A DNA stretch of 64,000 bases from Candidatus Omnitrophota bacterium (lineage in GTDB: Bacteria > Omnitrophota > Gorgyraeia > Zapsychrales > JANLHA01), in contig OY759724.1 of assembly GCA_963662715.1 (NCBI GenBank), positions 1,946,662 to 2,010,661 on the forward strand. The letters run 5' to 3'. Below are positions 28,179-53,253 of this stretch, piece after piece. The notes below the pieces were generated by a model. The model had not been told where the DNA came from and searched no databases. It saw only the letters and a program-made list of their open reading frames with translations. The position numbers were made by a program, and so were the translations under genes. How positions within the stretch are numbered: position 1 is the stretch's first letter; the number at the start of each line of letters is the position of its first letter.

Positions 28179-29000
28179 ATGGATCCGATTAAAGCCTACC
28201 TGAAAGATGTTCGTAAAATTCCGTTATTGACTCCCAAAGAAGAAGTCGAATTGGCCCGCAAAGCCAAAACCGGGGATCAGGAAGCCCGTAATAAAATGAT
28301 CCGCTCGAATTTACGCTTGGTGATCAGTATCGCCAAACGGTATATGAATCTTGGGGTGCCGCTCAGTGATCTCATTGAGGAAGGGAATATCGGGTTGATG
28401 AAAAGTATTGAGAAATTCGACCCGGAGAAAGGTTTTCGTTTCTCGACATATTCCGCCTGGTGGATCAAGCAGGGTATTTCCCGCGCCATTATTGATCAGG
28501 GCAAGATGATCCGTGTCCCTGTCTACATGAATGAGGAAATCTTAAAATATAAAAAGGCTGTCGAGGCTTTAACGCATAAACTCAGACGAAAACCCCGCAT
28601 GAGTGAAGTTGCCAGAAAATTACAGACAACGGTTGAAAAAGTGCGGGAACTGGAGCGGTCTATCGCCAAAATGTCCAGTCTCGACGCCCCTATCGGCAGT
28701 GACGGAGACAGCCAGGTTAAAGATATTATTGAGGATCAGAGTTCGGTCAGCCCGGACGAACAGTTAGAGGTGTTTTTCAACCGTGAACGCGCCCAGAGTT
28801 ATTTGAATATGCTCAATGAACGGGAACGTAAAATCCTCACAATGCGTTATGGCCTGGAAGACGGAAAAACTTATACCCTTGCGGAAATCGCCAAAAAACT
28901 GGGCGTGTCCCGCGAAAGAGTCCGGCAGATTGAAGCGGCGACAATTAAGAAAATACAGTTGCTTATACAGCAACAGGAATCTGAACAAGATGAAAAGTAA
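28179..29000 (+). CDS. RNA polymerase sigma factor, sigma-70 family (regions 2-4, no region 1.1)
   Basis: 'DLIEEGNIGLMKSIEKFDPEKGFRFSTYSAWWIKQGI' (region 2) and the region-4 HTH 'TLAEIAKKLGVSRERVRQIEA'. The RBS is AAGGAG. Confidence 0.85.
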   Translation: MDPIKAYLKDVRKIPLLTPKEEVELARKAKTGDQEARNKMIRSNLRLVISIAKRYMNLGVPLSDLIEEGNIGLMKSIEKFDPEKGFRFSTYSAWWIKQGISRAIIDQGKMIRVPVYMNEEILKYKKAVEALTHKLRRKPRMSEVARKLQTTVEKVRELERSIAKMSSLDAPIGSDGDSQVKDIIEDQSSVSPDEQLEVFFNRERAQSYLNMLNERERKILTMRYGLEDGKTYTLAEIAKKLGVSRERVRQIEAATIKKIQLLIQQQESEQDEK

Positions 29001-29841
29001 AAAGAGGAAAAATACTTTTGTCCTGGTGATTCCGAGTTTTGAGGACTTTTTTCATTCATTTTATGCCGGTGAGATTATTAAAGGCGTCAGTTTCGCGGCA
29101 AGCCGCTTGAAGATAGATATCCTCATTCATATCACGAACCGTTACGATCATCGCGGCTGGCTGGATTCAACCCTTTTAGACCGGAATTACATCGACGGGA
29201 TTATTTTTGCGGATATCGATAATGATGTGCATATTGTCAAAAAATCCATTTGCCGCGGCATCCCGACTTTTGTTTTGAATAATTCCCTTAAGGAGCCGAT
29301 CAACTGCATTTCAGTTGACAACTATAAGGCTTCTTTTGACATCGTGACCTATCTTCTGGAACTCGGGCATACAAAGATCGCCACTATCGCCGGGGACCTG
29401 ACGACACAGGCGGGAGAAAAGCGGTTGGAGGGCTATGAAAAAGCTTTGGCCGCCGCCGAACTTCCTGCCCTGAAATCCTATGTGACCCAGGGGGATTTCT
29501 TGCGCACGTCGGCACGGGTGGCGGCGAAAAAGCTGCTTAAACTCAAGGACCGTCCGACGGCGATTTTCGCCGCTTCTGATGTGATGGCGTTGGAAGTGAT
29601 TGATGTCGCCAGGCAGTTGGATCTGCGTGTCCCTGAGGATATCTCGGTCGTCGGGTTTGATAATAATCCCCTGGCCGCCACCGGTTCTGTCCCTTTAACC
29701 ACAGTATCTCAGCCGCTGGTCGAAATGGGGCGGTTGGGAACCGAACAATTGCAGCTTGTCCGTTGCGGAAAAGCTCAGTTGCCTGTCAAAATGACTTTGC
29801 CGACAAGACTCATTAAGAGGAAATCATCGGCCAGGCCTTAA
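28990..29841 (+). CDS. LacI/PBP-type periplasmic-binding-fold effector domain protein lacking an N-terminal HTH
   Basis: It starts directly in the sugar-binding domain ('VLVIPSFEDFFHSFYAGEIIKGV...IDGIIFA...DNYKASFDIVTYLLELGHTKIATIAG...'). The ATG at 28990 overlaps the sigma gene by 11 nt. The track ORF from 28816 has no HTH-like sequence either. Confidence 0.65.
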   Translation: MKSKKRKNTFVLVIPSFEDFFHSFYAGEIIKGVSFAASRLKIDILIHITNRYDHRGWLDSTLLDRNYIDGIIFADIDNDVHIVKKSICRGIPTFVLNNSLKEPINCISVDNYKASFDIVTYLLELGHTKIATIAGDLTTQAGEKRLEGYEKALAAAELPALKSYVTQGDFLRTSARVAAKKLLKLKDRPTAIFAASDVMALEVIDVARQLDLRVPEDISVVGFDNNPLAATGSVPLTTVSQPLVEMGRLGTEQLQLVRCGKAQLPVKMTLPTRLIKRKSSARP

Positions 29842-29898
29842 AAAACGCAGGCCCTGAAAAATAATTGTTTTAAGCATCTCAACGCAAGGAAACGGATT

Positions 29899-30432
29899 AT
29901 GAAAAAGCACGTGAGTTCAAAAAAGCTGGGCACCCTGATCCGGGATGTCCCTGATTTCCCTAAGAAAGGGATTATTTTTAAAGACATTACGACATTGCTG
30001 CAGGATGCGAAAGCTTTTAAAAAGGCTGTTAATGTTTTAGCGAAAGTGTATAAGAAAGAGAAAATTGATACGGTTGTGGCGATTGAATCCCGCGGTTTTA
30101 TTTTTGGCTCTGTTTTAGCGTATAAACTTGGGGCCGGATTTGTTCCGGTGCGTAAAAAGGGGAAATTGCCGTATGAAACAAAGAAAATCACCTATTCTTT
30201 GGAATACGGGACAGATACGTTGGAAATGCATATTGACGGGGTCGCTAAGAATGCCCGAGTATTGATTGTAGATGATCTTTTGGCAACAGGGGGGACGGTT
30301 CAGGCTGTTGTCAAACTTGTTAAGGGATGTAAAGCAAAGATTGTCGGGGTTGCCTTTTTAGTTGAACTGGAATTCCTGAAAGGCCGTAAGAAACTGAAAG
30401 GGTTACCGCTTTATTCGGTTATAAAATATTAA
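29899..30432 (+). CDS. apt: adenine phosphoribosyltransferase
   Basis: 'PDFPKKGIIFKDIT...VVAIESRGFIFG...VLIVDDLLATGGT' PRTase motifs. Confidence 0.9.
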   Translation: MKKHVSSKKLGTLIRDVPDFPKKGIIFKDITTLLQDAKAFKKAVNVLAKVYKKEKIDTVVAIESRGFIFGSVLAYKLGAGFVPVRKKGKLPYETKKITYSLEYGTDTLEMHIDGVAKNARVLIVDDLLATGGTVQAVVKLVKGCKAKIVGVAFLVELEFLKGRKKLKGLPLYSVIKY

Positions 30433-30526: not shown

Positions 30527-32368
30527 TTGTGTGAATCCGCATGGGCTGTCTTTATGTTTCAGACCTTCGATAAAAAGAAAGTTCTTATCACCAGCTTAAT
30601 TGTCTGTTGTGTCTTTTTTGTGCTCAGCCCGGTTCTCAGGAATGATTTTGTTAATTATGATGATAATGTCCATCTGCTCAACAATCCTTTTCTCCGGCCT
30701 TTAAATTCAGAAAATTTAAAACGGCTGTTTTCCACGACGGTCAATAAAACGTATATCCCGTTAACTTTATTATCTTTCTCCGTGGAATATGCGTTATGGG
30801 GTGCGGACCCTTTTGTCTATCACCTTAACAATCTTCTTTTCCACTGTGTGAACGTGGCTTTGGTGGTCAGTTTGGCCTGGCTTCTGGGGTTGTCCTGGCA
30901 GGTGGGGTGTTTGGCGGCATTGATTTTCGGCCTGCATCCCATGCATGTCGAGTCTGTGGCCTGGGTCACGGAAAGAAAAGATGTTCTGTATTCTTTTTTC
31001 TACCTGATCGCCGTTCACTGTTATGTTTTTCACTTGTTCCGGGTTTTCGCGCTTCAGAAAAACGCCTCCGCATGCTGTTCATCTCCAGGGAAGGGCGTGT
31101 CCCGGATCTCTCTAAAAGGAAAAGGCTGGCTGTGGGGCACAATCGTTTTCGGCGTTTTAAGCGCCTTTTCCAAACCGATGGCTTTAAGTTTGCCGTTTAT
31201 CTTGCTGTTGATTGACTGGTATTTGAAAAGGCCCATAAATGTTTACGTCCTGTTTGAGAAATTTCTATGCGGATTTTTTCTGTTTCCTGTTATATGGATC
31301 AGTTATTCTCTGCATATGCGTGCGGGGGAGATGTCTTTTCCCCAATCCGTTCTTATCTGGTTGTGGTGCTTTGCTTTTCATCTGAGAAAATTTTTCTTCC
31401 CGGATTCTTTTGCCGTGTTTTATGCCCCTCCGTGGCCTGTCGTCTTCTGGAATCGTGATGTGCTGCTGGCCTTGGGCATCGTGATTCTCGTCATCTGCGC
31501 CTTGATCCGCTTTCGGAGACAGCGTTTATTGCTGCTGGCGTTTTTTTGGTATTTCCTTTCGACATTTTTTCTTTACAGGTTTGACTACGGGGCGGATTCC
31601 CACGTTGTGGCAGACCGTTTTATGTATCTGCCGAGTTTGGGGTTTTGTTATGCGGCGGCGCTTTTTATGGCCCGCTTTGTATGTGAATATAATAAGAAAC
31701 GGAGTGAGCTGGCGGTTGCTTTTGTGTTGATTGTGGCGGTCTTCTTGTTCCTGTCCACTCAGGCGCGCAAACAGCTTTTTGTGTGGAGCAACAGTGAGCG
31801 GCTTTGGCGCCATCAGATTTCCTGGCAGTGGCAAGGGCAGCCCGGCTTGGTCCAGGCTGTGATCCTCACAAATTATGCTGATGCGGTTCTTCATCAGATG
31901 GGGGTGCGGAACCTTTTTCGGCCGTATTCTGACCGGGGGATCTCCGCCCTTAATAAAAGGCATGGCATCTCTTGTCATGACAGACGGCAGATAACGCAGG
32001 CTGTTTATCTCTATCAGAAGGCCCTGGAAATTCGTCCTCAATACGCCAGCGCTTCTTTCGGTTTGGCCAGGCTTTACGATCTTCTGGGGCAGGGCCGGGA
32101 AGCCGAGAGACATTACGGGCAGGCTGTTCATGCCGATCCCGCGCATTTCGACGCGTATTATTATCTTGGCCGTATTTTATTAAAGGAGAAAAGGGTTGAG
32201 GAAAGTGTCCGGGGTTTCCGGGCTGCGATTGAGGTTAATCCCGGAAACTTGCTTTTATTGGAACAGGTTATAAAGGAATACCGGGCGGCATTGGCTTCTT
32301 CTCCTCACCCCGAATTGATTGAAGAAGAACTGTCCCGTTTGATATCCCGGAGCCGAAAGACAAGATAG
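30527..32368 (+). CDS. TMTC/DUF1736-type polytopic membrane protein with C-terminal TPR repeats (putative protein O-glycosyltransferase, GT-C fold)
   Basis: 'NDFVNYDDNVHLLNNPFLR...SFSVEYALWG.DPFVYHLNNLLFHC.NVALV...GLHPMHVESVAWVTERKDVL', then TPR-like repeats ('YQKALEIRPQYASASFGLARLY...YGQAVHADPAHFDAYYYLGRI'). Confidence 0.6.
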   Translation: MCESAWAVFMFQTFDKKKVLITSLIVCCVFFVLSPVLRNDFVNYDDNVHLLNNPFLRPLNSENLKRLFSTTVNKTYIPLTLLSFSVEYALWGADPFVYHLNNLLFHCVNVALVVSLAWLLGLSWQVGCLAALIFGLHPMHVESVAWVTERKDVLYSFFYLIAVHCYVFHLFRVFALQKNASACCSSPGKGVSRISLKGKGWLWGTIVFGVLSAFSKPMALSLPFILLLIDWYLKRPINVYVLFEKFLCGFFLFPVIWISYSLHMRAGEMSFPQSVLIWLWCFAFHLRKFFFPDSFAVFYAPPWPVVFWNRDVLLALGIVILVICALIRFRRQRLLLLAFFWYFLSTFFLYRFDYGADSHVVADRFMYLPSLGFCYAAALFMARFVCEYNKKRSELAVAFVLIVAVFLFLSTQARKQLFVWSNSERLWRHQISWQWQGQPGLVQAVILTNYADAVLHQMGVRNLFRPYSDRGISALNKRHGISCHDRRQITQAVYLYQKALEIRPQYASASFGLARLYDLLGQGREAERHYGQAVHADPAHFDAYYYLGRILLKEKRVEESVRGFRAAIEVNPGNLLLLEQVIKEYRAALASSPHPELIEEELSRLISRSRKTR

Positions 32369-32842: not shown

Positions 32843-34228
32843 ATGAAAAAATTAGGTTTATCATTACTCGCTGTTGCTTTAATGGCCATGCCGGCTTCTG
32901 CCAGCGTGCAGAATATTAAACTCAGCGGGGATGTGGACTCAACTTGGTTGGTCCGGGACCAGTTTGATCTCGGAGCCCAAGGATCTGTTACAAATGATAA
33001 GCAATTCTATCAGAATCTTTTGCTTACACAAACCCGTCTCAGAGTGGATGCCGACTTAACGGACAACGTCAGCGCCACCATCGCTATGATTAATGAGCGG
33101 GCTTGGGGGACAGATGATGAAACAGCGAACGGGAACAACGACATTGATATCAACCTGGCTTACGTAACATTAAGGGAAATGCTGTATTCTCCTTTAACCG
33201 TTATTATCGGTCGCCAGAACTTTGCTTACGGGAACTCCTTTGTCGTTGATTCCGCCGGAACTAACAATGAAGTTTCTGTCGGCGGATTGAAGGGCGTTGC
33301 CGAAGACCTTACAAAACGTACGGCTTTGGACGCCGTCAGAATGGTGTTCGATTACAGCCCGCTGACCATTGACATCGTGGCCGCAAAGTACGACGCCAAT
33401 ACTTTAGTCGGTGTTGGCAGCCAGGATGACGACATTGACATCTTCGGGATCAACGCGAACTGGGAATTAGGCGATGACTTGGGTACGGTCCTGGAAGGTT
33501 ATTTCTGGAGCAAAATTGACCAGAGCGTTAAGGATGACGCTATCGGGAATAAGGCGGACACCGTTTACATGCCTGGTATCCGTATGGAAACCAATCTTCT
33601 GGACGGCCTTTGGCTTTCCGGAGAACTGGCTTTTCAGTTCGGTATCAAGTCCTACGGGGTTCAGGATATCGTTGCTGAACGCGAGGCTGCGGGCGCTCAG
33701 ATCATTGCAAATTATATGGTTCCTTTTGAAAGCACAAAGGCTTGGAGCCCGGTCCTGACAACAGCGTATAGCTATTACTCCGGGGACAGTGATCCATCTG
33801 ACCTCACCGATGTCTATGAGGCCTGGGATCCGGTCCTGGAAAATCAGGGTGGCGGAAAGATTTTCAACACCCTTTTTAATGCCACTAACTGTCACGTTGT
33901 AAAGGTTCGCGGAGCTATTGTTCCTATGGAAGATCTGACTGCGGCTTTTGAGTGGAACGGCTTGTGGTTAGATAAACCGTTAGCCGATACAGACGGAGAC
34001 GGCCTGACATCTCTGACGTTGATGCAGCCGGATGACAATGACATCTCTGTATCAACAGATACGGATAAACATATCGGGGATGACCTTTCTCTCGAGTTGG
34101 TCTATGACTATACTGAAGATGTCAAGATCGGCGCGAGCTATGGATGGTTTTTCCCGGGAACAATGTTCACGTCTGACAATGATCAAGTGGCTTCCCAGTT
34201 AATGCTCAATGCGATTGTTAATTTCTAA
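32843..34228 (+). CDS. outer-membrane beta-barrel protein (porin-like) with signal peptide and C-terminal Phe
   Basis: AGGAGGAGAGG RBS. Signal peptide 'MKKLGLSLLAVALMAMPASA'. Alternating amphipathic beta-strand pattern. The terminal '...LMLNAIVNF' ends in Phe. Confidence 0.6.
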   Translation: MKKLGLSLLAVALMAMPASASVQNIKLSGDVDSTWLVRDQFDLGAQGSVTNDKQFYQNLLLTQTRLRVDADLTDNVSATIAMINERAWGTDDETANGNNDIDINLAYVTLREMLYSPLTVIIGRQNFAYGNSFVVDSAGTNNEVSVGGLKGVAEDLTKRTALDAVRMVFDYSPLTIDIVAAKYDANTLVGVGSQDDDIDIFGINANWELGDDLGTVLEGYFWSKIDQSVKDDAIGNKADTVYMPGIRMETNLLDGLWLSGELAFQFGIKSYGVQDIVAEREAAGAQIIANYMVPFESTKAWSPVLTTAYSYYSGDSDPSDLTDVYEAWDPVLENQGGGKIFNTLFNATNCHVVKVRGAIVPMEDLTAAFEWNGLWLDKPLADTDGDGLTSLTLMQPDDNDISVSTDTDKHIGDDLSLELVYDYTEDVKIGASYGWFFPGTMFTSDNDQVASQLMLNAIVNF

Positions 34229-34260
34229 TTAACAATATACATTGTTGTTGTTGATGTACA

Positions 34261-34292
34261 AGCCCCTGCTTAATTTAAGCAGGGGCTTTTTT
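34261..34292 (+). terminator. rho-independent terminator after the porin-like gene
   Basis: AGCCCCTGCTT-aattt-AAGCAGGGGCT followed by TTTTTT. Confidence 0.75.
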
Positions 34293-34601: not shown

Positions 34602-35177
34602 ATGACCAGAGATGAAATTTATGACCATCTGGCTCAGGTATACATAGGGAAAAAGAGTAAAAACGATAAGGAAAAGAAAAAACAGCTCAGCGCCTGGCTT
34701 GTTATTAACATTGTTATTACTGTTGTTATTTTTGCGAGCGCTTTTTATGGCTTTACGGCCTTTTTAACTCACCGGGGAGAATCTTTCGAAAACAAGGTGA
34801 TCTATTCCCTGAATAAAGGTCCGTTGCGTGTTAATTATGATCTGACATACCCATATCCTCCGGTCAAGACCTTTTCCTTAACAACCCCACATGTTAATGC
34901 CGGTAAGTACCAGAAATTGCAATTTGCCATCAGAGGATTGGAGGACGGATATCCCGGAATTGTCCGCATAGAAATCAAGAATGCCCGGAATGAAATATCT
35001 TCTGTCTTTGTCGACGGGGTCAACCTGGGGTGGAAACGTTTTGAAATCCCTTTTGCCGAGTTTGATAAAATTACCGATTGGACCAGTATTACCGAGGTGT
35101 CTTTTATCCTGGAATCGTGGAATACTGATAAACAAAAAGGAATTATCCTTATAGACGAAATTTGCTTTTCCAGCTAA
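34602..35177 (+). CDS. membrane-anchored protein with a C-terminal beta-sandwich, possible carbohydrate-binding module
   Basis: GAGGAAG RBS. N-terminal TM 'WLVINIVITVVIFASAFYGFTAFL'. The C-terminal 'IVRIEIKNARNEISSVFVDGVNLGWKRFEIPFAEF...SFILESWNTDKQKGIILIDEICF' resembles CBM/CIA30-type jelly-roll domains; similarity judged by eye. Confidence 0.45.
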   Translation: MTRDEIYDHLAQVYIGKKSKNDKEKKKQLSAWLVINIVITVVIFASAFYGFTAFLTHRGESFENKVIYSLNKGPLRVNYDLTYPYPPVKTFSLTTPHVNAGKYQKLQFAIRGLEDGYPGIVRIEIKNARNEISSVFVDGVNLGWKRFEIPFAEFDKITDWTSITEVSFILESWNTDKQKGIILIDEICFSS

Positions 35178-35195
35178 AAAGGAGGCTAATGTAAA

Positions 35196-36347
35196 ATGAG
35201 AATCATATCCATTGCGAATCAAAAAGGAGGATGTGGGAAAACCACGACGGCGATTAACCTCTCCTCGGCGCTGAGTCATAATAATAAAAGAACATTGTTG
35301 ATTGACTTGGATCCGCAATCGCATGCGTCCCTGGGGTTGAATTTCGAGAACCAAGACAGCCTTTATAATGTGATTTCTAAACTGACGCCTCGTAAGCTGA
35401 AAATCCGTAATATTATAAAAAATGTCGACACGAATTTTGATATCGTCCCTTCAAGCATTTTGGTCGGGACGCTTGAGCAGGAACTGGCCGATGAGATCGG
35501 GCGGGAGACAAAGATTCTGGAGATCATTAATGAAATTAAGGAAGACTATGACTACATTCTTATTGACTGTCCGCCAAGTCTCGGTATCCTAACCGTGAAT
35601 TCCATCAGAGCCTCGGATGAGGTCATCATACCCGTCGAGACAAGCCGTTTTTCCATGCAGGGGGTTGAGCATCTTATGGACATTATCCATCTGATCCGCG
35701 ACCGGCTGAATCACCAGGTGGACTATAAAATATTGATCACGATGTTCGATTCGCGTTTGAGACATTCATTTTCTATGATGTCAAGCATAAGAGAGAAGTT
35801 CAGGGATGTCTTGTGTGACACAATTGTGCATATTAACGTTAAGCTGAAAGAGTCGGCGGTTATGGGGCAGACCGTGACAGCGTACGATAAATACTGCCGT
35901 GGTTCCAAAGATTATTTCAGCCTGGCCAAAGAACTGATTGCCGCTGAACAGACGGTGGAGAATCCTGAGGCGGCCGTTTCTGCCGGGCGGGAGGTTCCTG
36001 CGGAGACAGCCGGCAGTGAAATTCCTCAGGCACTTTCAGAAAGAATGCAGGAAACGATCAGGGTCCATGCCGGAGAGATGTGCATGACGACATTTACACT
36101 CGCTGCTCCGGATGCCAGGTCTGTCTACGTTACGGGCAGTTTCAATGACTGGTCCTTGGATGAAAATTGCCGGATGCGCCTTGAAGGAGATTCTTGGGTC
36201 GTCAAGGTGCCTTTGCGCCCTGGAACCTATAAATATCAATTTATTGTTGATGGCCGATGGAAAGAGGACCCGGCAAATCCCCGGCAAGAGCGGAATTCCT
36301 TTGGCGATATTAATTCCTTGCTAGAAGTGGTCCCGGTCAATGCCTAG
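35196..36347 (+). CDS. ParA/MinD-family deviant-Walker-A ATPase fused to a C-terminal AMPK-beta-like glycogen-binding domain (CBM48)
   Basis: GGAGG RBS. 'IANQKGGCGKTTTAINLSSAL' (KGGxGKT), 'LLIDLDPQ' and 'ILIDCPPSLG' ParA motifs. After a linker, 'VYVTGSFNDWS...RPGTYKYQFIVDGRWKEDPANP...FGDINSLLEV' aligns motif-for-motif with the AMPK-beta GBD ('GSFNNWS...GEHQYKFFVDGQWVHDPSEP...GTINNLIHV'). Confidence 0.8.
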   Translation: MRIISIANQKGGCGKTTTAINLSSALSHNNKRTLLIDLDPQSHASLGLNFENQDSLYNVISKLTPRKLKIRNIIKNVDTNFDIVPSSILVGTLEQELADEIGRETKILEIINEIKEDYDYILIDCPPSLGILTVNSIRASDEVIIPVETSRFSMQGVEHLMDIIHLIRDRLNHQVDYKILITMFDSRLRHSFSMMSSIREKFRDVLCDTIVHINVKLKESAVMGQTVTAYDKYCRGSKDYFSLAKELIAAEQTVENPEAAVSAGREVPAETAGSEIPQALSERMQETIRVHAGEMCMTTFTLAAPDARSVYVTGSFNDWSLDENCRMRLEGDSWVVKVPLRPGTYKYQFIVDGRWKEDPANPRQERNSFGDINSLLEVVPVNA

Positions 36348-36663
36348 AAAGCAGGCCCTGAAAGAAGACCCCATTTCCGAAGGAAAGATTTTTGCCATTC
36401 TGGCCTATCTGTCGATACTCTGCATCATTCCCTTATTGTTTAAAAAAGATAATCAATTTGTTTTATCTCATGGGAAACAAGGACTCGTGTTATTTATCGG
36501 CGAGGTAGGTGTTTTTGTTCTCAGCATTATCTTCCCGTGGCTGTTGAGGATAGGTTTGTTTTGCCTGGGAATATATTCTTTTGTCGGGATCATTTCTGCT
36601 TTGCAGGGACGAACCATAAAACTTCCTTTTATCTCGCGTATGGCAGAGAACATTACTCTTTAG
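36340..36663 (+). CDS. DUF4870-like small membrane protein
   Basis: 'KIFAILAYLSILCIIPLLFKKDNQFVLSHGKQGLVLFI' matches the DUF4870 pattern. It overlaps the ParA-CBM48 stop by 8 nt. Confidence 0.55.
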   Translation: MPRKQALKEDPISEGKIFAILAYLSILCIIPLLFKKDNQFVLSHGKQGLVLFIGEVGVFVLSIIFPWLLRIGLFCLGIYSFVGIISALQGRTIKLPFISRMAENITL

Positions 36664-36727
36664 CTGTTTTTCCGTTTCCTGTCCCTTCGTTTCTTATTAA
36701 CATTAATATTATTTTCATTGAAATATT

Positions 36728-37468
36728 ATGCCTATAATAGAGAATATTATTTCCTTTTTCGAGAGAATGCTTGGGACCCCTCATCCCAAGAAAAAGAAAC
36801 GAAGTTTGCCCAGGAATAAATCGGTAAGCCGCAGAAAAACAACCCGGGCAAACGAAGGAGCCCGTAAGCCGGGACCGGGCCGGCTTTCTTCCCCTGGACA
36901 GCAAAGCCGGAAGCCTCAGGCAAAGAAGGGCGCTTCAGCGGCCAGGAAAGTCAAAAAGAAAGTTGTTGCAAAAGAAAAGGTCGCGGCGCGAACAAAACGA
37001 TATAAAGGTGAAAATAAAAAGACCGGGACAGCCCCTTCAGTTAAAAAGAAGGCCGTCCATACGCCGAATAAGGCTCGGCAGAGCCCTGTTCGTGGCAGAG
37101 CCCTGCCTGAGGTAAAGAAAAAAAATTCTGGGAAGCCGGTAAAGCAAGCGCAAAAAAAAGTTAAAAGGCCTTCTGCGGGCAATGTGGGAGACAGGTGTGG
37201 TTCAGCGGCGATAGAGTTTGACCGGGTGGGGCAAGTAACTCATTATTTTTCTAAAATTATGGTTTGTGTGGTTAGGGTTGAGGCGGCGGCCATCTCGCTG
37301 GGAGACCAAATTGTCATTAAAGGGAAGAAAACCAAGCTTTCTCAAAAGGTTCAGTCTCTTCAGGTTGAGAGTGTTGACGTGAAATCGGCCAAGAGAGGTC
37401 AACTGGTGGGCCTCAAAGTCGTCAGTCAGGTTTGTCCGGGTGATGTTGTCCAGAAAATAAGAAAATGA
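36728..37468 (+). CDS. lysine-rich protein with a disordered N-terminal 170 aa and a C-terminal beta-barrel resembling translation-factor domain II
   Basis: N-terminal KKKK/AKK-rich low complexity. The C-terminal 'GQVTHYFSKIMVCVVRVEAAAISLGDQIVIKG...VQSLQVESVDVKSAKRGQLVGLKV...PGDVV' follows the EF-Tu/IF2 domain-II barrel pattern. The start is uncertain; an alternative ATG lies at 36770. Confidence 0.5.
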   Translation: MPIIENIISFFERMLGTPHPKKKKRSLPRNKSVSRRKTTRANEGARKPGPGRLSSPGQQSRKPQAKKGASAARKVKKKVVAKEKVAARTKRYKGENKKTGTAPSVKKKAVHTPNKARQSPVRGRALPEVKKKNSGKPVKQAQKKVKRPSAGNVGDRCGSAAIEFDRVGQVTHYFSKIMVCVVRVEAAAISLGDQIVIKGKKTKLSQKVQSLQVESVDVKSAKRGQLVGLKVVSQVCPGDVVQKIRK

Positions 37469-37834
37469 ACCAATAATGCCAGGCCTCCCAAAGATGCGAA
37501 GAAGGAATTCATCGGAAAGATAGATGAGTATCTATTTAAGGTCTGGTGTATCTATTTGACAGAAATATTCTTTTTGTTATAATTTTCTCTATAAGCTTCT
37601 CGGGCGGAAAACGTTATGTTAATTGGCGCAGGCTTGATGAGGGGCAAACAAGATAAACCCGGAGAAGGACGTTAAAAAAATCACGCCTATTATTAAAATA
37701 TGCATTATCATATTTTCCCTGATGCTCCTCGCGCAAAGTCATTGGTTTTCATGTAAGACAGAATTGATAATTCACGGCTAAATTTAAAACTGTGCCTTCA
37801 TAGCGGTGGGAAGGATAATAAAGGAAAATGATAT

Positions 37835-38731
37835 ATGTCCAACGTCAATAAGTCCCCCATGCCTTCCAACGGAAATTTATTTATGATTTTTTCGGCTTTA
37901 AGGCCCTATCAATGGATTAAAAGTGCCTTTGTTTTTCTGCCGTTGATTTTCGGCGGCAAACTTTTCCATGTCCCCACGTTTATAAAGACAGTCTGGATGG
38001 CTTTAATATTCGCCCTTGCCTCCAGCGCCGTCTATGTCCTGAATGATATTTATGACTTAACCGAAGATCAAAAACATCCGGATAAATGCCGCCGGCCTCT
38101 AGCCGCGGGGGTTATGACCCTGTCCCGGGCCAGGATGATCATTGTTTCTCTCTCGCTTATTACGCTTGTCTTGTCATATACCGTTAACATTCATGCCGCA
38201 TTCATCATTATGGCTTATTTTCTTTTGAATTACCTGTATTCGAAATATTTAAAGCATATCGTCATTATTGATGTTTTTTGTATCGGAGCTTTTTATTATT
38301 TGCGCATCCTGGCCGGGGGGGTTGCCAGCGATGTTTATTTGTCAAACTGGATCATTATGTGTTCGGTTTTGTTGGCTTTATTCATCGGATTTAATAAACG
38401 CAAATATGACGTTGATTTTGAAAAAGACAATCACGCCCAGACAGATTCTTATACCCGTTATTATATTGACAGAATGATATCCGTCATTGCCTCCTCCTTA
38501 ATTATGAGTTATGCCCTTTATGTCATGGACCGGGAAACGATTGCCAAATTTCATACAACGGCCCTGATTTATACGGTGCCTTTTGTTTATTACGGGATTT
38601 TCCGATATATTTATCTGGTTGATATGAAATTACTGGGAGGCGATCCGGTGCGCATTCTCTGGAAAGACGGAGTTTTGAAATTGACCGTTTTGTTGTGGCT
38701 CCTGACGTGCACCGTCATCATATACGTTTGA
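37835..38731 (+). CDS. UbiA-family prenyltransferase, decaprenyl-phosphate 5-phosphoribosyltransferase-like
   Basis: 'LRPYQWIKSAFVFLPLIFGG' N-terminus and 'NDIYDLTEDQKHPDKCRRPLAAG' (NDxxDxxxD) resemble the DPPR-synthase (Rv3806c-type) subfamily. 8-9 TM helices. Confidence 0.65.
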   Translation: MSNVNKSPMPSNGNLFMIFSALRPYQWIKSAFVFLPLIFGGKLFHVPTFIKTVWMALIFALASSAVYVLNDIYDLTEDQKHPDKCRRPLAAGVMTLSRARMIIVSLSLITLVLSYTVNIHAAFIIMAYFLLNYLYSKYLKHIVIIDVFCIGAFYYLRILAGGVASDVYLSNWIIMCSVLLALFIGFNKRKYDVDFEKDNHAQTDSYTRYYIDRMISVIASSLIMSYALYVMDRETIAKFHTTALIYTVPFVYYGIFRYIYLVDMKLLGGDPVRILWKDGVLKLTVLLWLLTCTVIIYV

Positions 38732-38768
38732 ACGTGCAGATGAATTAACAGGGCGTTTTTGAAATTTT

Positions 38769-39512
38769 GTGATGATGTCTCCGGCACATATGAAATTATC
38801 CGTTATCATCCCTTTTTATAATGAAAAGGGGAACATCAGCTTTGTTCTTGATGAAATCAACGAGGTCATGGGGCCCCTGGATATCCCGTATGAAGTCATT
38901 GCCGTGGATGACGGAAGCGAGGATGCCACCCCGGACATCCTCCGGCGCTACTCTCAGGATTGGGAGCAGATGACCGTTGTGACTTTTCCTGAAAATAAGG
39001 GAAAGGATGCGGCCATGTTCGCCGGTTTTCATGCCGCCGGCGGGGATGTGATCGTGACTTTGGACGGGGACGGCCAGAACGACTTTCACGATATCGTTCT
39101 GATGCTTCCCTGGTTAAAGGACTATGACGGGGTTTTCGGCGCCAGAGTCAACCGGCAGGACCCTTTCAGCAAGAAAATCGTTTCCCGGGTGGCGGCTTTT
39201 TTCCGGAAGTTGATTCTCAAGGATGACGTGAAAGATACGGCTTGCGCTTTAAAAGTTTTTAAACGCCACGCGCTCGCGAGCCTCTTTCCGATGAGAGGGG
39301 TTCATCGTTTTATCCCGTTTTTATTCCATCTCTCAGGATTGACTTATAGAATCGTTCCGGTGCATCATCGGCCGAGAAGGGAGGGCCGGTCAAAATTCTC
39401 TCTTAAACGGTTTTATTTCGTTTCGACCATTCTTGATCTTATGTTTATGTGGTGGTTTAAGTTGAACTATATTCGATGTCAGCGTGAGGAAGGCGGTCTT
39501 GGTAGAAAATAA
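38769..39512 (+). CDS. family-2 glycosyltransferase (polyprenyl-phosphate sugar synthase, DPM1/ArnC-like)
   Basis: 'LSVIIPFYNEKGNI...VIAVDDGSEDAT...VTLDGDGQND' GT2 DxD motifs, plus a C-terminal TM anchor. An alternative start is at 38790. Confidence 0.8.
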   Translation: MMMSPAHMKLSVIIPFYNEKGNISFVLDEINEVMGPLDIPYEVIAVDDGSEDATPDILRRYSQDWEQMTVVTFPENKGKDAAMFAGFHAAGGDVIVTLDGDGQNDFHDIVLMLPWLKDYDGVFGARVNRQDPFSKKIVSRVAAFFRKLILKDDVKDTACALKVFKRHALASLFPMRGVHRFIPFLFHLSGLTYRIVPVHHRPRREGRSKFSLKRFYFVSTILDLMFMWWFKLNYIRCQREEGGLGRK

Positions 39513-39525
39513 CTCTCAACCGGGT

Positions 39526-40725
39526 ATGTCAAAAAAGATTTGTCATGGATGGTTTCTTCCCCCTGTCCTCATTTTAACCAGCTTTTTTTTAACAGTCATT
39601 TTTTTGGAAATCCTGGCCCGTCTTTTTTTGCCGGTTCCTCCGAGACTCGTCATCGAGAATTTGAACAAACCCGGCCAGAGCGATTATACGGAATATGGAG
39701 ACTTCCATGTTGACCAGGATGGGCATATTGAGAGTGAACGGCTTCCGGGAGGATTTTTTCTTTACTCGCATACGGGCACGCGGCTTAAAAGAAATGCCAG
39801 GGGAGTGGTGCGTAACCATGCTGTTTCGAATACCGATGTGGACATCTCAACCAATTCTTTGGGATTCCGTCACCGGGAACTTGGCCCGAAGAAAAAAAAT
39901 GAACTGAGGATTTTGGTCCTGGGAGACAGTATCACTTTCGGAGACTTTGTCCCGCAGGATCAGACATATCCTGCTTATCTTGAGCGCCATTTGCGGGCGA
40001 TGTTCCCGGCCAAACATATTGAAGTCATTAACGCCGGGGTCGGGGGGGTTGATCTTCAGAACGAGTTTGCCATTCTCATGGAAAGCGGTCTTTCCGTTGA
40101 GCCGGATATTGTTCTGGTAGGCCTGTACCTGAATGATGCCCATGAGTCCCCTTTCTTGAAAATCAGCCGTTTGCCCTCCTGGCTGGACTGGAGTCATCTC
40201 GCAAGATTTGTCCTGGGCAAGGTGGATAAATTGCGTGCGTTATACCGGGAGCATAAGTGGGAGGAGCAATCTCCCGAGGCTTGGAAGGAGGCCAGGGCAA
40301 GGTTTGCCAGGCAGAACCCTTTACGGGAAGGCGGCGGTAATACAGATGCGTCCCTGAATTGGGAGATTCACCATGCGTTCAGGGACTGGGGCTATGCCTG
40401 GGATGACGGGTACTGGGATAAGGTTCTGGACATTATTGATATGATGGCCGATGTCAGTCAGGACCATCATTTTAAATTGGCTTTCTGTTATTTCCCGGTT
40501 CGTTTTCAGATCACAGCCGCCCATCTGAAGAATGAGCCTCAGCAAAGATTTGAAATGGAAATGCAGCGGCGGCGTTTGCCGCATTTGGATTTGCTGCCTG
40601 TTTTAAGATCCAAATATTCCGGAGATCAGCAGGACCTGTTATATGATCATTGTCATTACCGGCCGGAAGGTAATGCTTTTATCGGGGAAATGTTAGCCCG
40701 TTTTATGGCAGATCATTTGCTGTGA
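39526..40725 (+). CDS. SGNH/GDSL-family hydrolase (esterase/acyltransferase-like), membrane-anchored
   Basis: N-terminal TM, 'LRILVLGDSITFGD' (GDS block I), 'NAGVGG' (block II) and a 'DHCH' block V-like motif. Confidence 0.7.
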   Translation: MSKKICHGWFLPPVLILTSFFLTVIFLEILARLFLPVPPRLVIENLNKPGQSDYTEYGDFHVDQDGHIESERLPGGFFLYSHTGTRLKRNARGVVRNHAVSNTDVDISTNSLGFRHRELGPKKKNELRILVLGDSITFGDFVPQDQTYPAYLERHLRAMFPAKHIEVINAGVGGVDLQNEFAILMESGLSVEPDIVLVGLYLNDAHESPFLKISRLPSWLDWSHLARFVLGKVDKLRALYREHKWEEQSPEAWKEARARFARQNPLREGGGNTDASLNWEIHHAFRDWGYAWDDGYWDKVLDIIDMMADVSQDHHFKLAFCYFPVRFQITAAHLKNEPQQRFEMEMQRRRLPHLDLLPVLRSKYSGDQQDLLYDHCHYRPEGNAFIGEMLARFMADHLL

Positions 40726-40792
40726 ATTTCATCACAGGCCATGAGGGCTTTATCCCGGACGGAAGCTGTCCGGGCAAACCCAGGAGAACAAA

Positions 40793-41512
40793 ATGGAAGG
40801 ACCTTTAACGTTGATCATGCCGGTTTTCAATGAAGCCGAAACCATAGAGAAGGTGATCCGTGATACTTACGGAGAAGTGAGCCGCTGGCAGACGGCGGTG
40901 AACTTCATTATTGCGGAAGACGGCAGTCAGGACGGGACAAAGGAAATATTATATGAACTTCAAAAGGATATCCCTTTCACCTTGGTAAGTTCGCAGGAAC
41001 GTAAAGGCTATACCCGGGCCTTCAAGGATGCCCTGGCTTTGGCCGGGACCCCCTGGGTCCTTTTCAGCGACTCGGACGGGCAGCACGACCCCCGGGACAT
41101 GAAGAAGCTCGTTGATGCCGCGGAAGGGTATGATATCGTCAGCGGATGCAAGACCCCGCGGCATGACCCTCCGCACCGGCTGATGTTATCGTTTTTTTAT
41201 AATTCTTTTATTCATGTGCTGTTTGGCCTGAAAATGAAAGACTGCAATTCCGGTTTTAAGCTCATCCGGAAATCCGTTATCGATCAGGTTCTCCCGCAGC
41301 TTCAGGATATGCGGGATTGTATTATGTCAGAATTTATCTTGAGGGCCTATTTATTAGGTTTTAGAATTAGGGAAATCCCCGTAACGCATTATGCCCGGCC
41401 TTTCGGGCAGACGGCTATTTTTCAACTGAAACAGTTGCCGGGTATCATCTGGGGGCTGCTTAAGGCCTTGGTTCATATTAAACGGGAAGATCAAAGAAGA
41501 AAAGCGATATGA
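40793..41512 (+). CDS. family-2 glycosyltransferase (dolichyl-phosphate-sugar synthase-like)
   Basis: 'LIMPVFNEAETI...IIAEDGSQDGT...FSDSDGQHD' GT2 signature. Confidence 0.8.
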   Translation: MEGPLTLIMPVFNEAETIEKVIRDTYGEVSRWQTAVNFIIAEDGSQDGTKEILYELQKDIPFTLVSSQERKGYTRAFKDALALAGTPWVLFSDSDGQHDPRDMKKLVDAAEGYDIVSGCKTPRHDPPHRLMLSFFYNSFIHVLFGLKMKDCNSGFKLIRKSVIDQVLPQLQDMRDCIMSEFILRAYLLGFRIREIPVTHYARPFGQTAIFQLKQLPGIIWGLLKALVHIKREDQRRKAI

Positions 41513-42834
41513 AGATCCTTATATTAGGCGCGGGGCTCGCCGGTTTAGAGTGCGGGCGGCAGCTCCGTCAGCGGGGGTGTGATTTTGCAATTCTTGAAAA
41601 AGAGTCGCAGATCGGCGGCCTCGCCAGGACCAACAAGACGGGGGATTATGCCTGGGACTTCGGCGTGCATGCTCTTTACAGCCGGCATCCTCATATGACC
41701 CGGTATCTGCACAGCCTGCCGTTGGACTACGTTCCGTCGGAACGGAGAGTTTCCATTTATCATACATCAGGCAGAAACGCGCCCCCGTATTTGATTAACT
41801 ATCCTTTTGAGGAAGGCATCAAGGGCCTGCCCTGGAAGGACCGCTGGGAATGCATCGGCGGATATTTCATTTCGAAATTTCGGCATCAATCCGAATATTG
41901 TCATTTGCAGGATTGGATCGATCACGGGCTGGGCTTCGGGATCGCCAAGCATTTTATGACGCCCTACAACCGGAAAATCTGGAACTGTCCCCTTGAGGAC
42001 ATTTCCATGGATTTGGTCAATGCGAAGATTCATCCCGCTTCACTCAAGAATTTTCTTATGGCCGCTTTCGGCAGGGAGGTTATCGGGCGAATCTATCAAT
42101 GGAAATTTGTTTATCCCCGCAGGGGCATTCAGGCCTTAATGGATTACACGGCGCAAGACATCCGCGATAAGATACGGGTCAAAAAGCAGGTGGAGAAAAT
42201 AAGACGGCAGGGTACGGGCTGGGAGGTTTTAACGACCGACGGGGATATTGAGAAGGCGGATAGGGTGATTTCTACGATCCCTTTGGTGGAATTATTGAAA
42301 ATGGTTGAAATGGAAGGCCTGCACAAGAGTTTTTCTCAGCTGAAATGGAATGACACGTATTTCATTCTTGTCGGATTAAGAAAGGGATGCCGGTTTTCAT
42401 TGCTGAACGACTGCCACTGGGCTTTTTTTAAAGAGCAGGAAATTTTCTACCGGATCACGATGATGCATAATTTCAGTGAGGAGTTTTTGCCCGCCTTGGT
42501 TGCGGAGGTGACAAATAAGGAAGCCGTCCGGCAGATGTCCCCGGAACAAATACAGGCCGGGGTCCTCAAGGACTTGACGCGTTTGAACATTATCAAGAAC
42601 TCCCGGGATGTCGCTGTCACGGACATACGATACGTTCCTTATACGTACCCTATCCCTACGGTCGATCTGGATTCCGTCAAGGATACGATCACCCGGCGAC
42701 TGGAAAGGGAAAATATATTGCTTGTCGGACGAAACGGGCGCTGGGATTACCTGAACATGGACGGGATACTCCGGTCCGTTTCCGAATTTATCCGGGGCTA
42801 TTTTGGTGATGAGCCGGACGGCCCGCCGCTTTAG
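41509..42834 (+). CDS. FAD/NAD(P)-binding oxidoreductase (amine-oxidase / UDP-galactopyranose-mutase-like fold)
   Basis: 'MKILILGAGLAGLECGRQL...ILEKESQIGGLARTNKTGDYAWDFGVHALYS' GxGxxG dinucleotide motif and 'GG.A.T' motif. It overlaps the GT2 stop by 4 nt. Confidence 0.6.
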   Translation: MKILILGAGLAGLECGRQLRQRGCDFAILEKESQIGGLARTNKTGDYAWDFGVHALYSRHPHMTRYLHSLPLDYVPSERRVSIYHTSGRNAPPYLINYPFEEGIKGLPWKDRWECIGGYFISKFRHQSEYCHLQDWIDHGLGFGIAKHFMTPYNRKIWNCPLEDISMDLVNAKIHPASLKNFLMAAFGREVIGRIYQWKFVYPRRGIQALMDYTAQDIRDKIRVKKQVEKIRRQGTGWEVLTTDGDIEKADRVISTIPLVELLKMVEMEGLHKSFSQLKWNDTYFILVGLRKGCRFSLLNDCHWAFFKEQEIFYRITMMHNFSEEFLPALVAEVTNKEAVRQMSPEQIQAGVLKDLTRLNIIKNSRDVAVTDIRYVPYTYPIPTVDLDSVKDTITRRLERENILLVGRNGRWDYLNMDGILRSVSEFIRGYFGDEPDGPPL

Positions 42835-42975
42835 GGCCGGTTTATCTCCAGGGCGCTGGCTTTTATAACAGTCCCCCCAGGAGGGCGGAAGGGGGGGAAC
42901 GGACACGGGCAGCGACTGGCCGTGTGTTTGTGAAATCAATGAATGGATACATTGCTTCTGTAAGATCTCTCCTTT

Positions 42976-44637
42976 ATGAAAATTCAATTAAGAAAAATAT
43001 CCCCTGGGGCTGTCTGTCACAATGAATGTTTCCCCGCTGTTCTGTTTGTGATCTTTTTTGTCTTGAGCTGGCTGTTCATGCAGCACACTTTCAGTTATAA
43101 AGACGATACATTTTTCCTGAGACATAAAGTCTGGAGCGATTTCGGGGCGCATATCCCTCTCATCAGATCTTTTTCCATGGGAGATAATTTCTCCCTCGAA
43201 CACCCCCTGTTCCCGGGAGACCGGATGCGCTATCATTTCCTTTTTTATTCCTGGGTCGGACTTCTTGAGCAATGGGGGCTTAATATCGCTGTGGCTCTTA
43301 ACCTGCTCAGCGCCTTTGGTTTGGCTTTGTTGATGTGGCTCATCTTTCGTCTGAGTGAAAAGATGTTCACCAGCCGTTTAGCCGGGCTGCTCGCGGTCCT
43401 GCTTTTTCTTTTTAACGGATCCCTGTCCTGCCTGTTTTTCTTCCAGAAACATCCCTTGCACTGGAGTTCCTGGCAGGACATTATCACGGCAGACTCTTTT
43501 GCTTCGTTTGGGCCCTGGAACGGGATCGTAAGTATTTTCTGGACCCTGAATATCTACACCAATCAGCGGCATTTGGCTTTAAGTTATGCCGTGATCCTTT
43601 TATGTTTGTGGCCGCTGATGACCCTGGCTTTTGAAGGGAGAAAGATATCCTTAAGGAATAAGATCGCGATCGGCATGGTCGCGGCGCTTGCCCCGTTTCT
43701 TCATCATACGATTATCCCCGTTGTTTTTACATATGTTGTGATGTGGATGATATTTTGTCCCCGGATGGCAAGGGCCATAGGCCCTTATTATCTGTTCATG
43801 TTCCTTTGCGCGGTCCCGGCATTATGGTATATGAACGACGGCTCTTCCGTTGATTTTGTCTATTCCCCGGGGTTTGTTCAGCAGCCCAAAAACTGGGTGG
43901 AGTGGGCGGAATACTGGATGTATAATCTGGGGCTTTATACCGTTCTCATACCCTTTGTCTTTATATGGGCGAAGAAAGGGGGCCGCGTCTGGCTGGCTTC
44001 GTCTTTCATCCTTTTTATTGTCAGCAATATCTGGCGGTTTTCTCCGGACATGTTTAATAATCACAAGCTGATCAATTTCTTTATGATTTCTGTGCAGATT
44101 GTCGTTGCCGGATTTCTTGCGCAATGGCTGCGGAAACCCGGTCTTTTCCGGGCAGGAGCCGTGGCGTTTTTGCTGACTTTGACTTTTTCCGGAGTGATTG
44201 ATTTTTTCCCGATCCTGAATGACGGCCGGGGGGCCCTGCGGGACTTCCGCAGATCGCCCGCAGCTGTCTGGATTCAGGAGAATACGTCTCCGCAGTCCGT
44301 GTATTTATGTACGAACGGGATGAACTCTCCCCCTTCGTTCCTGGGGCGCCGGATTTATATGGGGTACGTTTATTTTCCCTGGTCCGCCGGCTTTCCCGCC
44401 TATGAAAGACTCCGGGCGATTGAACCCGTTTTTCATGAGGATACGGACCAGGAATCGGTTTGCCGGCTGCTTCAGCAGGAGCATATCGATTATATTGTCG
44501 TCGAACCCGGCACCGATGCCTGGCCGGAGATCGATATCCATGACAGTCTGTTATTAAAGACATGGACGCCAATCTTCAAAACAGATGATCGCTACAAGAT
44601 TTATTCTGTCAAGGAGGAATGTGCTGAGACACGTTAA
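42976..44637 (+). CDS. polytopic membrane protein (about 12 TM), putative GT-C-fold glycosyltransferase
   Basis: 553 aa and highly hydrophobic, with large loops. It lies in the glycosylation gene neighbourhood. I recognise no family. Confidence 0.4.
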   Translation: MKIQLRKISPGAVCHNECFPAVLFVIFFVLSWLFMQHTFSYKDDTFFLRHKVWSDFGAHIPLIRSFSMGDNFSLEHPLFPGDRMRYHFLFYSWVGLLEQWGLNIAVALNLLSAFGLALLMWLIFRLSEKMFTSRLAGLLAVLLFLFNGSLSCLFFFQKHPLHWSSWQDIITADSFASFGPWNGIVSIFWTLNIYTNQRHLALSYAVILLCLWPLMTLAFEGRKISLRNKIAIGMVAALAPFLHHTIIPVVFTYVVMWMIFCPRMARAIGPYYLFMFLCAVPALWYMNDGSSVDFVYSPGFVQQPKNWVEWAEYWMYNLGLYTVLIPFVFIWAKKGGRVWLASSFILFIVSNIWRFSPDMFNNHKLINFFMISVQIVVAGFLAQWLRKPGLFRAGAVAFLLTLTFSGVIDFFPILNDGRGALRDFRRSPAAVWIQENTSPQSVYLCTNGMNSPPSFLGRRIYMGYVYFPWSAGFPAYERLRAIEPVFHEDTDQESVCRLLQQEHIDYIVVEPGTDAWPEIDIHDSLLLKTWTPIFKTDDRYKIYSVKEECAETR

Positions 44638-44641
44638 TTTT

Positions 44642-46357: not shown

Positions 46358-46558
46358 CCCTGCTTGGGCGTGGGGGAGGAGAGACGAGCCGGAGAAGGAC
46401 GCGTACTTTTAAAATAATGATTCTGTGCGTGGGCCAGGATCAAAATATGATATAATTCCCTAAAATTAAGGAAGAATGCCGGATTCCTAAAATTTATAAA
46501 TATTTAAAGGCCGTTTCCTTGTCCCGGGTCCTCTGAGGCCGCATGTGATTTCCTGTCC

Positions 46559-48265: not shown

Positions 48266-48295
48266 TTCCGCTGCCATGAATTTCCTGGGGGTTCT

Positions 48296-49894: not shown

Positions 49895-49960
49895 TGTGCT
49901 CCCCTTGCGGTGCAGAACCCTGAGATTGAAATCTGATGAGCGGGAGGTTGAAATCAACGC

Positions 49961-50998: not shown

Positions 50999-51128
50999 GG
51001 AGGCCCCTTCTTTAAAAATGAGAGAAAAAAGATATTTTTGTTCCGTTCAGGAAATTAGTGTTTTATTATATCACAGAGGAAAAGTCTTCCCAAAAGCCAA
51101 ACGAGGTAATTTGTCGGTTAAAAAATAA

Positions 51129-53228: not shown

Positions 53229-53253
53229 TTATTTTTTGTCGGGGAGGGGAATT

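Follow-up and report, generated by a model that had tools for sequence, protein, structure and literature searches.

Introduction

ATPases of the ParA/MinD type are in charge of positioning chromosomes, plasmids, carboxysomes, chemoreceptor arrays, flagella and the divisome. A large number of them remain "orphans", since the diversity of their partners prevents recognition. Omnitrophota is an uncultivated phylum of mostly ultra-small bacteria. In this study, we characterize KD2, a 246-aa protein encoded at 36728..37468 (+ strand) of a 64,000-nt stretch of DNA (hereafter, the window) from Candidatus Omnitrophota bacterium (GenBank assembly GCA_963662715.1, contig OY759724.1, positions 1,946,662 to 2,010,661). 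KD2 begins with a helix, continues with a disordered polybasic region and ends in a β-barrel resembling domain II of EF-Tu, and it is encoded two genes downstream of a Soj-like ParA ATPase fused to a CBM48 domain (hereafter, ParA-CBM48). We found that KD2 is a real gene, conserved across the phylum Omnitrophota, and that a functional link between KD2 and ParA-CBM48 is well supported.

The partners of ParA/MinD ATPases are described as extremely diverse proteins whose genes lie close to that of the ATPase and which interact by way of an N-terminus that is disordered and positively charged (PMC10241942). The first 20 residues of McdB, which include three lysines, are necessary and sufficient for McdA binding (PMC12139897), and the motif by which ParB binds ParA comprises aliphatic and positively charged residues (10.1101/2025.03.14.642875). 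KD2 is like these partners (the ParB peptide, McdB, MinE and PomX) in its location beside a ParA-type ATPase and in its basic disordered N-terminus, where aliphatic residues and lysines are mixed, the remainder of the protein being free for cargo or matrix binding. On the other hand, the structured part of KD2 is a translation-factor barrel, which we have not found reported in any partner, and the ATPase itself carries a CBM48 domain. Unlike ParB, KD2 has neither a ParB/Srx CTPase domain nor a helix-turn-helix domain in Pfam and NCBIfam searches at E<=1, and unlike MinE, it has no Pfam match to the MinE topological-specificity domain. KD2 also differs from McdB in having no detected coiled coil and no tryptophan, a residue described as invariant at the C-terminus of McdB (PMC11321042). 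In addition, we found no carboxysome genes among the 36 open reading frames (ORFs) of the window scanned with Pfam, nor any ParB, Min or glycogen-metabolism genes.

As regards the barrel, the nearest characterised stand-alone analogue is Pbp11 of Pyrococcus abyssi (PDB 7ANU), a small barrel that follows a poorly conserved disordered N-tail; this tail is needed for tRNA binding and the barrel contacts the ATPase PAN (PMC9540759). However, Pbp11 shares just 17-19% identity with KD2, with a template modelling (TM) score of 0.62-0.67 and no match at the level of hidden Markov models (HMMs). Its tail measures 20 aa versus ~160 aa in KD2, and it is found in Thermococcales only, in a proteasome context and not a ParA context. 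Much closer in sequence are the stand-alone proteins that NCBI names "translation elongation factor-like protein", which are 35-52% identical to the KD2 barrel, reach profile E-values of ~1e-28 and show the same invariant columns. Their hosts are Bathyarchaeia, Micrarchaeota, Woesearchaeota, Thermoplasmatales, the Candidate Phyla Radiation (CPR), Chloroflexi and Clostridia. Unlike KD2, they lack an extension at the N-terminus and are not encoded in a ParA-CBM48 neighbourhood. The best fold match of the KD2 barrel is the C-terminal domain of the U32 family, but the identity is 20% and the U32 catalytic domain is absent from KD2 (no Pfam match), which excludes it from the U32 proteins. Finally, KD2 shares the fold and the sequence pattern of domain II with the translational GTPases EF-Tu, EF1A, IF2/eIF5B and SelB, but it lacks their domain III as well as their G domain.

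Results

Hundreds of homologues have kept the reading frame of KD2 together with its barrel and its N-terminal helix, which rules out an artefact or a chance ORF, and the N-termini of the orthologues back its start codon. A full-length AlphaFold2 (AF2) model, for which an alignment of 41 relatives was used as input, contains a helix at residues 2-14, with a predicted local distance difference test (pLDDT) score of ~76. It continues with a region without secondary structure at residues 15-163 (36770..37216, +; pLDDT ~50) and ends with an all-beta domain at residues 164-244 (37217..37459, +; pLDDT 94-98). In the original prediction, KD2 had been read from the letters alone as a lysine-rich disordered protein that ends in a domain-II barrel without a G domain. 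The ORF proved exact and so did the disorder, and the AF2 modelling that had been proposed for the C-terminus returned a confident barrel. The barrel is nevertheless somewhat longer than had been stated (~81 aa instead of 75 aa). The low complexity ascribed to the first 170 residues applies to residues 15-163, but not to residues 2-14, which form a conserved amphipathic helix that had been overlooked.

This helix (PIIENIISFFERM; 36731..36769, +) is supported by the AF2 model, by a family-wide sequence pattern and by its hydrophobic moment. The first 15 residues of the family follow the pattern M-[SAP]-[ILF]-[LFI]-[KD]-K-[LIF]-[ILF]-x-[SA]-[LFI]-K-K-[LIF]-[FL], which in a longer form reads M-x-[ILF]-[LFI]-K-K-[LIF]-[ILF]-x-x-[LFI]-K-K-[LIF]-F-K-K-K. 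In the 142 extended relatives, the hydrophobic positions are 3, 4, 7, 8, 11, 14 and 15. The helical hydrophobic moment of residues 2-16 averages 0.60 in the family versus 0.29 in shuffled sequences, and is 0.58 in the KD2 of the window. An N-terminal amphipathic helix followed by basic residues is an arrangement that resembles MinE, in style only. The polybasic region that follows is defined by its composition: residues 17-165 of KD2 contain 21.5% K, 10.7% R and ~5% D+E, with a net charge of +41. Similar values were found throughout the family. An N-extension of at least 40 aa is present in 142 of the 156 relatives whose barrel start could be placed; these extensions are made of 27.5% K, 12.4% R, 11% S and ~3% D+E. 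The length of the basic region varies from 65 to 173 aa among relatives, and its K/R content is always high (20-48%).

Some Omnitrophota copies of KD2 are listed in public records as proteins of 84-94 aa. These are start-codon miscalls, as in-frame ATG codons located upstream give N-termini beginning MPILDHLLSATIKYLKKKQK... and MALFRRILESLKKKF... The records P0166 (85 aa), P0205 (94 aa) and P0004 (84 aa), all from metagenome-assembled genomes (MAGs), start at an internal GTG, TTG or ATG and thereby cut KD2 to its barrel. At the miscalled loci L164 (4836-5258), L165 (4731-5285) and L013, the upstream ATG brings back the helix and the polybasic extension. Since public MAG annotations often keep the barrel alone, domain-based surveys miss the architecture of KD2.

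The assignment of the barrel rests on AF2 models (pLDDT 91-98), Foldseek, Pfam and a set of invariant columns. A barrel-only AF2 model, with 80 sequences as input, has 7 strands and a mean pLDDT of 91.4. The closed all-beta barrel superimposes on those of EF-Tu, EF1A, IF2 and eIF5B with a Foldseek probability of 1.0 and query TM scores (TMq) of 0.63-0.82. The best structural match, the U32-family C-terminal domain (4HE5/4HE6), gives TM scores of 0.82-0.90 and a root-mean-square deviation of 1.1 Å over 80-82 columns; for this domain and for Pbp11, the Foldseek probability is likewise 1.0. Several family members also match the corresponding Pfam family (PF16325). The Pfam profile GTP_EFTU_D2 (PF03144) scores 17.7 bits against full-length KD2 and 21.5 bits against the barrel alone, below the gathering score of 30.3; it is matched at E<0.01 by 36 of 40 family members, with a best value of 5.8e-8. 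The barrel is the sole Pfam or NCBIfam match in KD2, and residues 1-163 are accounted for by the helix and the disordered region, so that a G domain is absent.

The family is large. A phmmer search with the C-terminal 90 residues of KD2 against 1.84 billion representative proteins retrieved 1553 clusters at E<=1e-3 and 317 clusters at E<=1e-10. In almost all of the best 150 relatives, the barrel lies at the extreme C-terminus of a protein of 130-250 aa. Some relatives outside the Omnitrophota type (P0095 and P0135) have two matched barrel stretches and acidic N-terminal regions. A profile search with the barrel family, covering a collection of 5.8 billion proteins, yielded 1082 proteins at E<=1e-5. 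Many of these are proteins of ~85 aa from Bathyarchaeia, Micrarchaeia and other groups. The long Omnitrophota proteins and the stand-alone barrels share the same invariant columns, namely H, Q, S, Q, E and several G. Altogether, KD2 belongs both to the translation-protein barrel superfamily and to an uncharacterised family of stand-alone barrels; lacking a G domain, it is no translation factor.

The original prediction had placed KD2 on the same strand as the ParA fusion and two genes downstream of it, which is the case, the intervening gene coding for a 107-aa DUF4870-like membrane protein. It had also proposed to examine whether the two genes are conserved together, and co-conservation holds in both directions. 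In a forward scan, one genome per GTDB species was searched with an alignment of 9 close barrel sequences, which gave 79 loci; each locus was then searched with the neighbour proteins of the window, and the full reading frame of the barrel was rebuilt. All 46 Omnitrophota loci with the upstream region in view, some of them from MAGs titled "Planctomycetales" or "Lysobacterales" in ENA, hold the porin, p191, ParA, CBM48 and, mostly, DUF4870, with the same strand, order and spacing. The porin is located ~4 kb upstream of the barrel, p191 ~2.4 kb, ParA ~1.8 kb, CBM48 ~0.9 kb and the DUF4870-like gene ~0.6 kb. In one further Omnitrophota locus (L047), where just ~600 nt upstream are in view, DUF4870 alone was seen. 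Titles reading "uncultured Planctomycetales" are found on L005, L012, L017, L021-L023, L039, L042, L066 and L082, and L025 is titled "Lysobacterales"; on MAGs that carry the block, such titles are probably mislabels or placeholder names.

The arrangement was absent from all 34 archaeal, CPR, Chloroflexi and Clostridia loci, in which the barrels stand alone and mostly measure 81-90 aa; among these loci, no neighbour recurred in more than five. In a Saccharibacteria locus (L073) without ParA, the barrel is preceded by a K-rich N-extension of 30 aa that is of independent origin. The reverse scan was independent of KD2, as metagenome contigs were searched by CBM48-domain motifs only. In 43 of the 47 loci having at least 1300 nt of downstream DNA, the barrel was found 350-920 nt after CBM48. 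The order of the conserved block is porin, p191, ParA-CBM48, DUF4870-like and KD2, with KD2 always last. The DUF4870-like gene is missing in ~9 loci, of which 4 come from genomes and 5 from metagenomes; KD2 still directly follows ParA-CBM48 in 8 of these ~9 loci. Identity to the window across loci is 65-91% for the ParA domain, 32-75% for the porin, 43-80% for p191 and 39-67% for the barrel.

The helix and the polybasic extension are present in essentially every copy encoded in the module and in no stand-alone copy. Hence, this extension is a lineage-specific addition to the barrel, restricted to Omnitrophota. Its presence coincides exactly with residence in the ParA-CBM48 module, and no other argument speaks as strongly for a function of the extension within this module.

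The ParA-CBM48 fusion (35196..36347, +) consists of a ParA/Soj-type ATPase at residues ~1-252 (35196-35951) and a CBM48/AMPK-beta-type domain at residues ~297-380 (36084-36335). Its Pfam matches are AAA_31 (9e-55), AMPK1_CBM (9.7e-16) and CBM_48 (1.5e-5), and its deviant Walker A motif is of the Soj type (KGGCGKT). In the CBM48 domain, the motifs GSFNDW, FIVDGxW and NSFGDINS are nearly invariant across the loci searched. In a by-eye alignment to the carbohydrate-binding module (CBM) of rat AMPK-beta1, the two tryptophans and the asparagine at the sugar contacts are kept, which is a lead and not a test. The degree of constraint (65-91% identity of the ParA domain throughout the phylum) is unusually strong for a ParA-family protein. 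Among the PDB structures, a ParA family protein (8ray, E 7e-48) comes closest, followed by Soj of Thermus and Helicobacter; 8ray is cited in a preprint on the ParA-ParB system of Myxococcus (10.1101/2025.03.14.642875).

The p191 gene (34602..35177, +) codes for a 191-aa single-pass membrane protein, for which a single transmembrane segment is predicted. Across 91 distinct orthologues, most positions of the cytoplasmic N-tail of p191 (residues 1-17, MTRDEIYDHLAQVYIGK; 34602..34652, +) show an invariance of at least 95%, far above the rest of the protein. This tail, which is acidic or neutral (D4, E5, D8) and not basic, is probably a specific docking peptide, judging from its conservation. We did not rely on a carbohydrate-binding label for p191, as the CBM_11 match is weak and inconsistent, with one more match (E 0.022) among five further orthologues. 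The DUF4870/MamF-MmsF-like gene (36340..36663, +) gives a Pfam DUF4870 match that is sub-threshold but recurrent, and it is syntenic in most loci.

These three genes and KD2 probably form a single four-gene transcription unit (34602-37468), because the genes are separated by short gaps or overlap, a terminator-like hairpin precedes p191 and a promoter after KD2 would open the next unit. The gap between p191 and ParA-CBM48 is 18 nt, ParA-CBM48 and the DUF4870-like gene overlap by 8 nt, and 64 nt separate the latter from KD2. The hairpin (34260..34288, +), with a 13-bp stem and a T-run, is located between the porin and p191. The sigma-70-like promoter (37556..37583, +), 3' of KD2, matches the consensus at 12/12 positions and has an extended -10 (TG); both elements are pattern matches only. 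The porin upstream of p191, of the Alginate_exp family (32843..34228, +; Pfam 1.1e-10, synteny), is probably part of a separate transcript. A defence-system reading of the operon was discarded, since none of its four proteins had a meaningful match in a PADLOC scan.

The surroundings of the block vary. In the window, ~15.7 kb of envelope-glycan genes (37835-53228) lie between KD2 and a 151-aa gene at 53236-53691. They include a UbiA/decaprenyl-phosphate phosphoribosyltransferase-like gene, two GT2 genes, an FAD oxidoreductase, a PMT_2-like gene, a DUF2298 membrane protein and an NAD epimerase, together with a candidate SGNH-type hydrolase (39484-40725) guessed from its sequence. In L164, L165, L001 and L003, a homologue of the 151-aa gene stands almost directly after KD2, with rpsO-pnp a few genes on; PNPase is encoded at 59566-61677 in the window. 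The glycan block of the window thus looks like a lineage-specific insertion. Small Flp/Fap-pilin-like ORFs (...GQNAIEYxLL...) are found 3' of KD2 in many loci (L164 5323-5496, L165 5296-5475, L139 and L161 among them), and in one locus a T2SSE-type ATPase comes right after KD2 (L003 3920-5248). These genes hint at a Tad-pilus neighbourhood around KD2 in other loci; in the window, no Flp/Fap-pilin-like ORF was found adjoining KD2. Four loci of the reverse scan (L127, L139, L141 and L161) contain a nearby gene on the minus strand for a small membrane-anchored protein (80-120 aa) with a charged, coiled-coil-looking tail, and a homologue of this protein is encoded in the window at ~58265-58483 (-). 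On the other side of the block, a LacI-type regulator with a periplasmic-binding fold and an adenine phosphoribosyltransferase are encoded 5' of the porin, both in the window (28816-30432) and in L164 (1-603). The window has, in addition, a 613-aa membrane protein inserted before the porin (30527-32368), whose C-terminal region looks TPR-like by eye. Overall, the neighbouring genes point only to an envelope or glycan theme.

Discussion

Our preferred reading, which we put forward tentatively and with somewhat less than even confidence, is that the Soj-like ATPase ParA-CBM48 has its cognate partner or adaptor in KD2. Two features described for the partners of ParA/MinD ATPases were found in KD2, namely adjacency to the ATPase in a conserved synteny and a basic disordered N-terminus. 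Moreover, this N-terminus fits, by analogy, the descriptions of the ParA-binding peptides of McdB and ParB, and a role of KD2 in stimulating the ATPase is plausible on the same grounds. The original prediction of an McdB/ParB-like partner is borne out as regards adjacency, co-conservation and the basic disordered N-terminus. It does not extend to homology, as KD2 has no family match to ParB, MinE or McdB and contains no tryptophan.

According to the mechanism that we propose, an ancestral stand-alone barrel of ~85 aa, of the translation-factor type, would have gained an amphipathic helix and a polybasic disordered linker of 65-170 aa, giving rise to KD2. The resulting protein would be a dedicated subunit of an Omnitrophota-wide module made up of p191, ParA-CBM48, the DUF4870-like protein and KD2. 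Its lysine-rich N-terminal region, that is, the helix and the first basic stretch, may contact ATP-bound ParA dimers and promote their turnover, in the manner of the N-terminal peptides of ParB, McdB and MinE. The polybasic linker may tether KD2 to a polyanionic surface, which would be nucleoid DNA or RNA or else the anionic inner membrane. The barrel, in turn, may carry a ligand or cargo that is also bound by the stand-alone barrels, possibly an RNA- or tRNA-type ligand.

Several observations weigh against this proposal. The N-helix of KD2 is conserved as an amphipathic pattern and not by identity, with the top residue reaching at most ~52% in any column. Because the pattern alone is kept while the ParA domain stays 65-91% identical, the helix looks less like a specific docking peptide than like a helix that targets membranes. 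The helix of the window KD2 contains E5, E12 and R13, and the basic run begins only at residue 21. In addition, the near-invariant N-tail of p191 could be an equally good or better candidate than KD2 for the specific contact with ParA. The invariant residues of the barrel are also found in stand-alone archaeal proteins without a ParA neighbour, and Pbp11 binds tRNA (PMC9540759). Finally, 4 of the 47 ParA-CBM48 loci of the reverse scan (L127, L139, L141 and L161, mentioned above) have no barrel within the downstream DNA examined, even in an unfiltered HMM search (--max).

Some of these points would be explained if KD2 were a peripheral membrane scaffold and not an activator. Its helix and polybasic region would then anchor the protein at the anionic inner membrane next to p191 and the DUF4870-like protein, the barrel would recruit a ligand to this site, and the N-tail of p191 would dock either ParA or the CBM48 domain. 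The high hydrophobic moment of a pattern-conserved helix followed by K/R runs is in agreement with such an anchor, and so is the fact that two operon partners, p191 and the DUF4870-like protein, are integral membrane proteins. The near-invariance of the p191 tail also parallels the very high conservation of ParA. However, the p191 tail is acidic or neutral, unlike the positively charged peptides of known partners (PMC10241942), and KD2 stays beside ParA even in loci without DUF4870. Furthermore, a membrane-bound protein may still act as an activator, as MinE does, and this alternative and the partner reading are therefore not fully exclusive. On balance, we regard a scaffold without activating function as rather unlikely.

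A second alternative is that KD2 primarily binds RNA, tRNA or the ribosome, as a relative in kind of Pbp11 with a much longer basic tail, and that its gene lies in the ParA operon owing to co-regulation or to an indirect link, such as the tethering of RNA or ribosomes to the nucleoid or the membrane. The fold is shared with domain II of EF-Tu, the C2 domain of IF2 and the U32 C-terminal domain, and domains of this type bind tRNA ends or ribosomes. The structural match to Pbp11, whose disordered tail is required for tRNA binding, points in the same direction. The Omnitrophota copies have their invariant residues in common with the stand-alone archaeal and CPR copies, the Saccharibacteria copy has a short K-rich tail of its own without ParA, and rpsO-pnp is located a few genes downstream of KD2 in many loci. 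Yet the likeness to Pbp11 is structural only, and the stand-alone copies have no conserved translation-related neighbour. Above all, the extension is exclusive to the copies of the ParA module, and the synteny is held across the whole phylum. We therefore consider a primary role in RNA binding unlikely.

Lysine-rich tails are also known from PhaF and PhaM, which tether polyhydroxyalkanoate granules to the nucleoid, and from chlamydial Hc1 and Hc2, which compact DNA. Very unlikely, in our opinion, is that KD2 acts as a histone-H1/Hc1-like nucleoid-associated protein, coating or compacting the DNA that serves as the matrix of ParA without specifically contacting ParA, as its composition (32% K+R, ~5% D+E, a net charge of +41 and AKK/KKK runs) would allow, for this leaves unexplained the conserved N-terminal helix, the conserved barrel and the fixed position beside ParA-CBM48.

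Going back to KD2 as the partner of ParA-CBM48, the four proteins might make up an undescribed positioning system of the ParA/MinD type, universal in Omnitrophota, in which KD2 would represent a new, barrel-built class of partners. Instead of DNA or a protein organelle, the cargo of such a system, which the ATPase itself would grip via CBM48, could be a glycogen-like granule of alpha-glucan or a machinery for envelope glycans. We advance this broader proposal with considerable doubt. In the literature searched, we found no paper on the KD2 family, on the ParA-CBM48 fusion or on the module, and the main genomics paper on Omnitrophota mentions neither ParA nor glycogen. The architecture of KD2 is unprecedented for a partner candidate, and the ParA-type ATPase beside it carries a fused CBM.

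The locus thus pairs a ParA ATPase that has a fused cargo-binding domain, CBM48, with a candidate partner, and this pairing is fixed across an entire phylum. Such conservation and the possibility of a new class of cargo should be of interest to specialists, although the finding concerns an accessory protein and not the ATPase itself. If KD2 is indeed the partner of ParA-CBM48, it would define a new class of ParA/MinD partners and, possibly, polysaccharide as a new class of cargo. It would also provide the first cellular role for a member of the widespread family of ~85-aa barrels of archaea and CPR bacteria.

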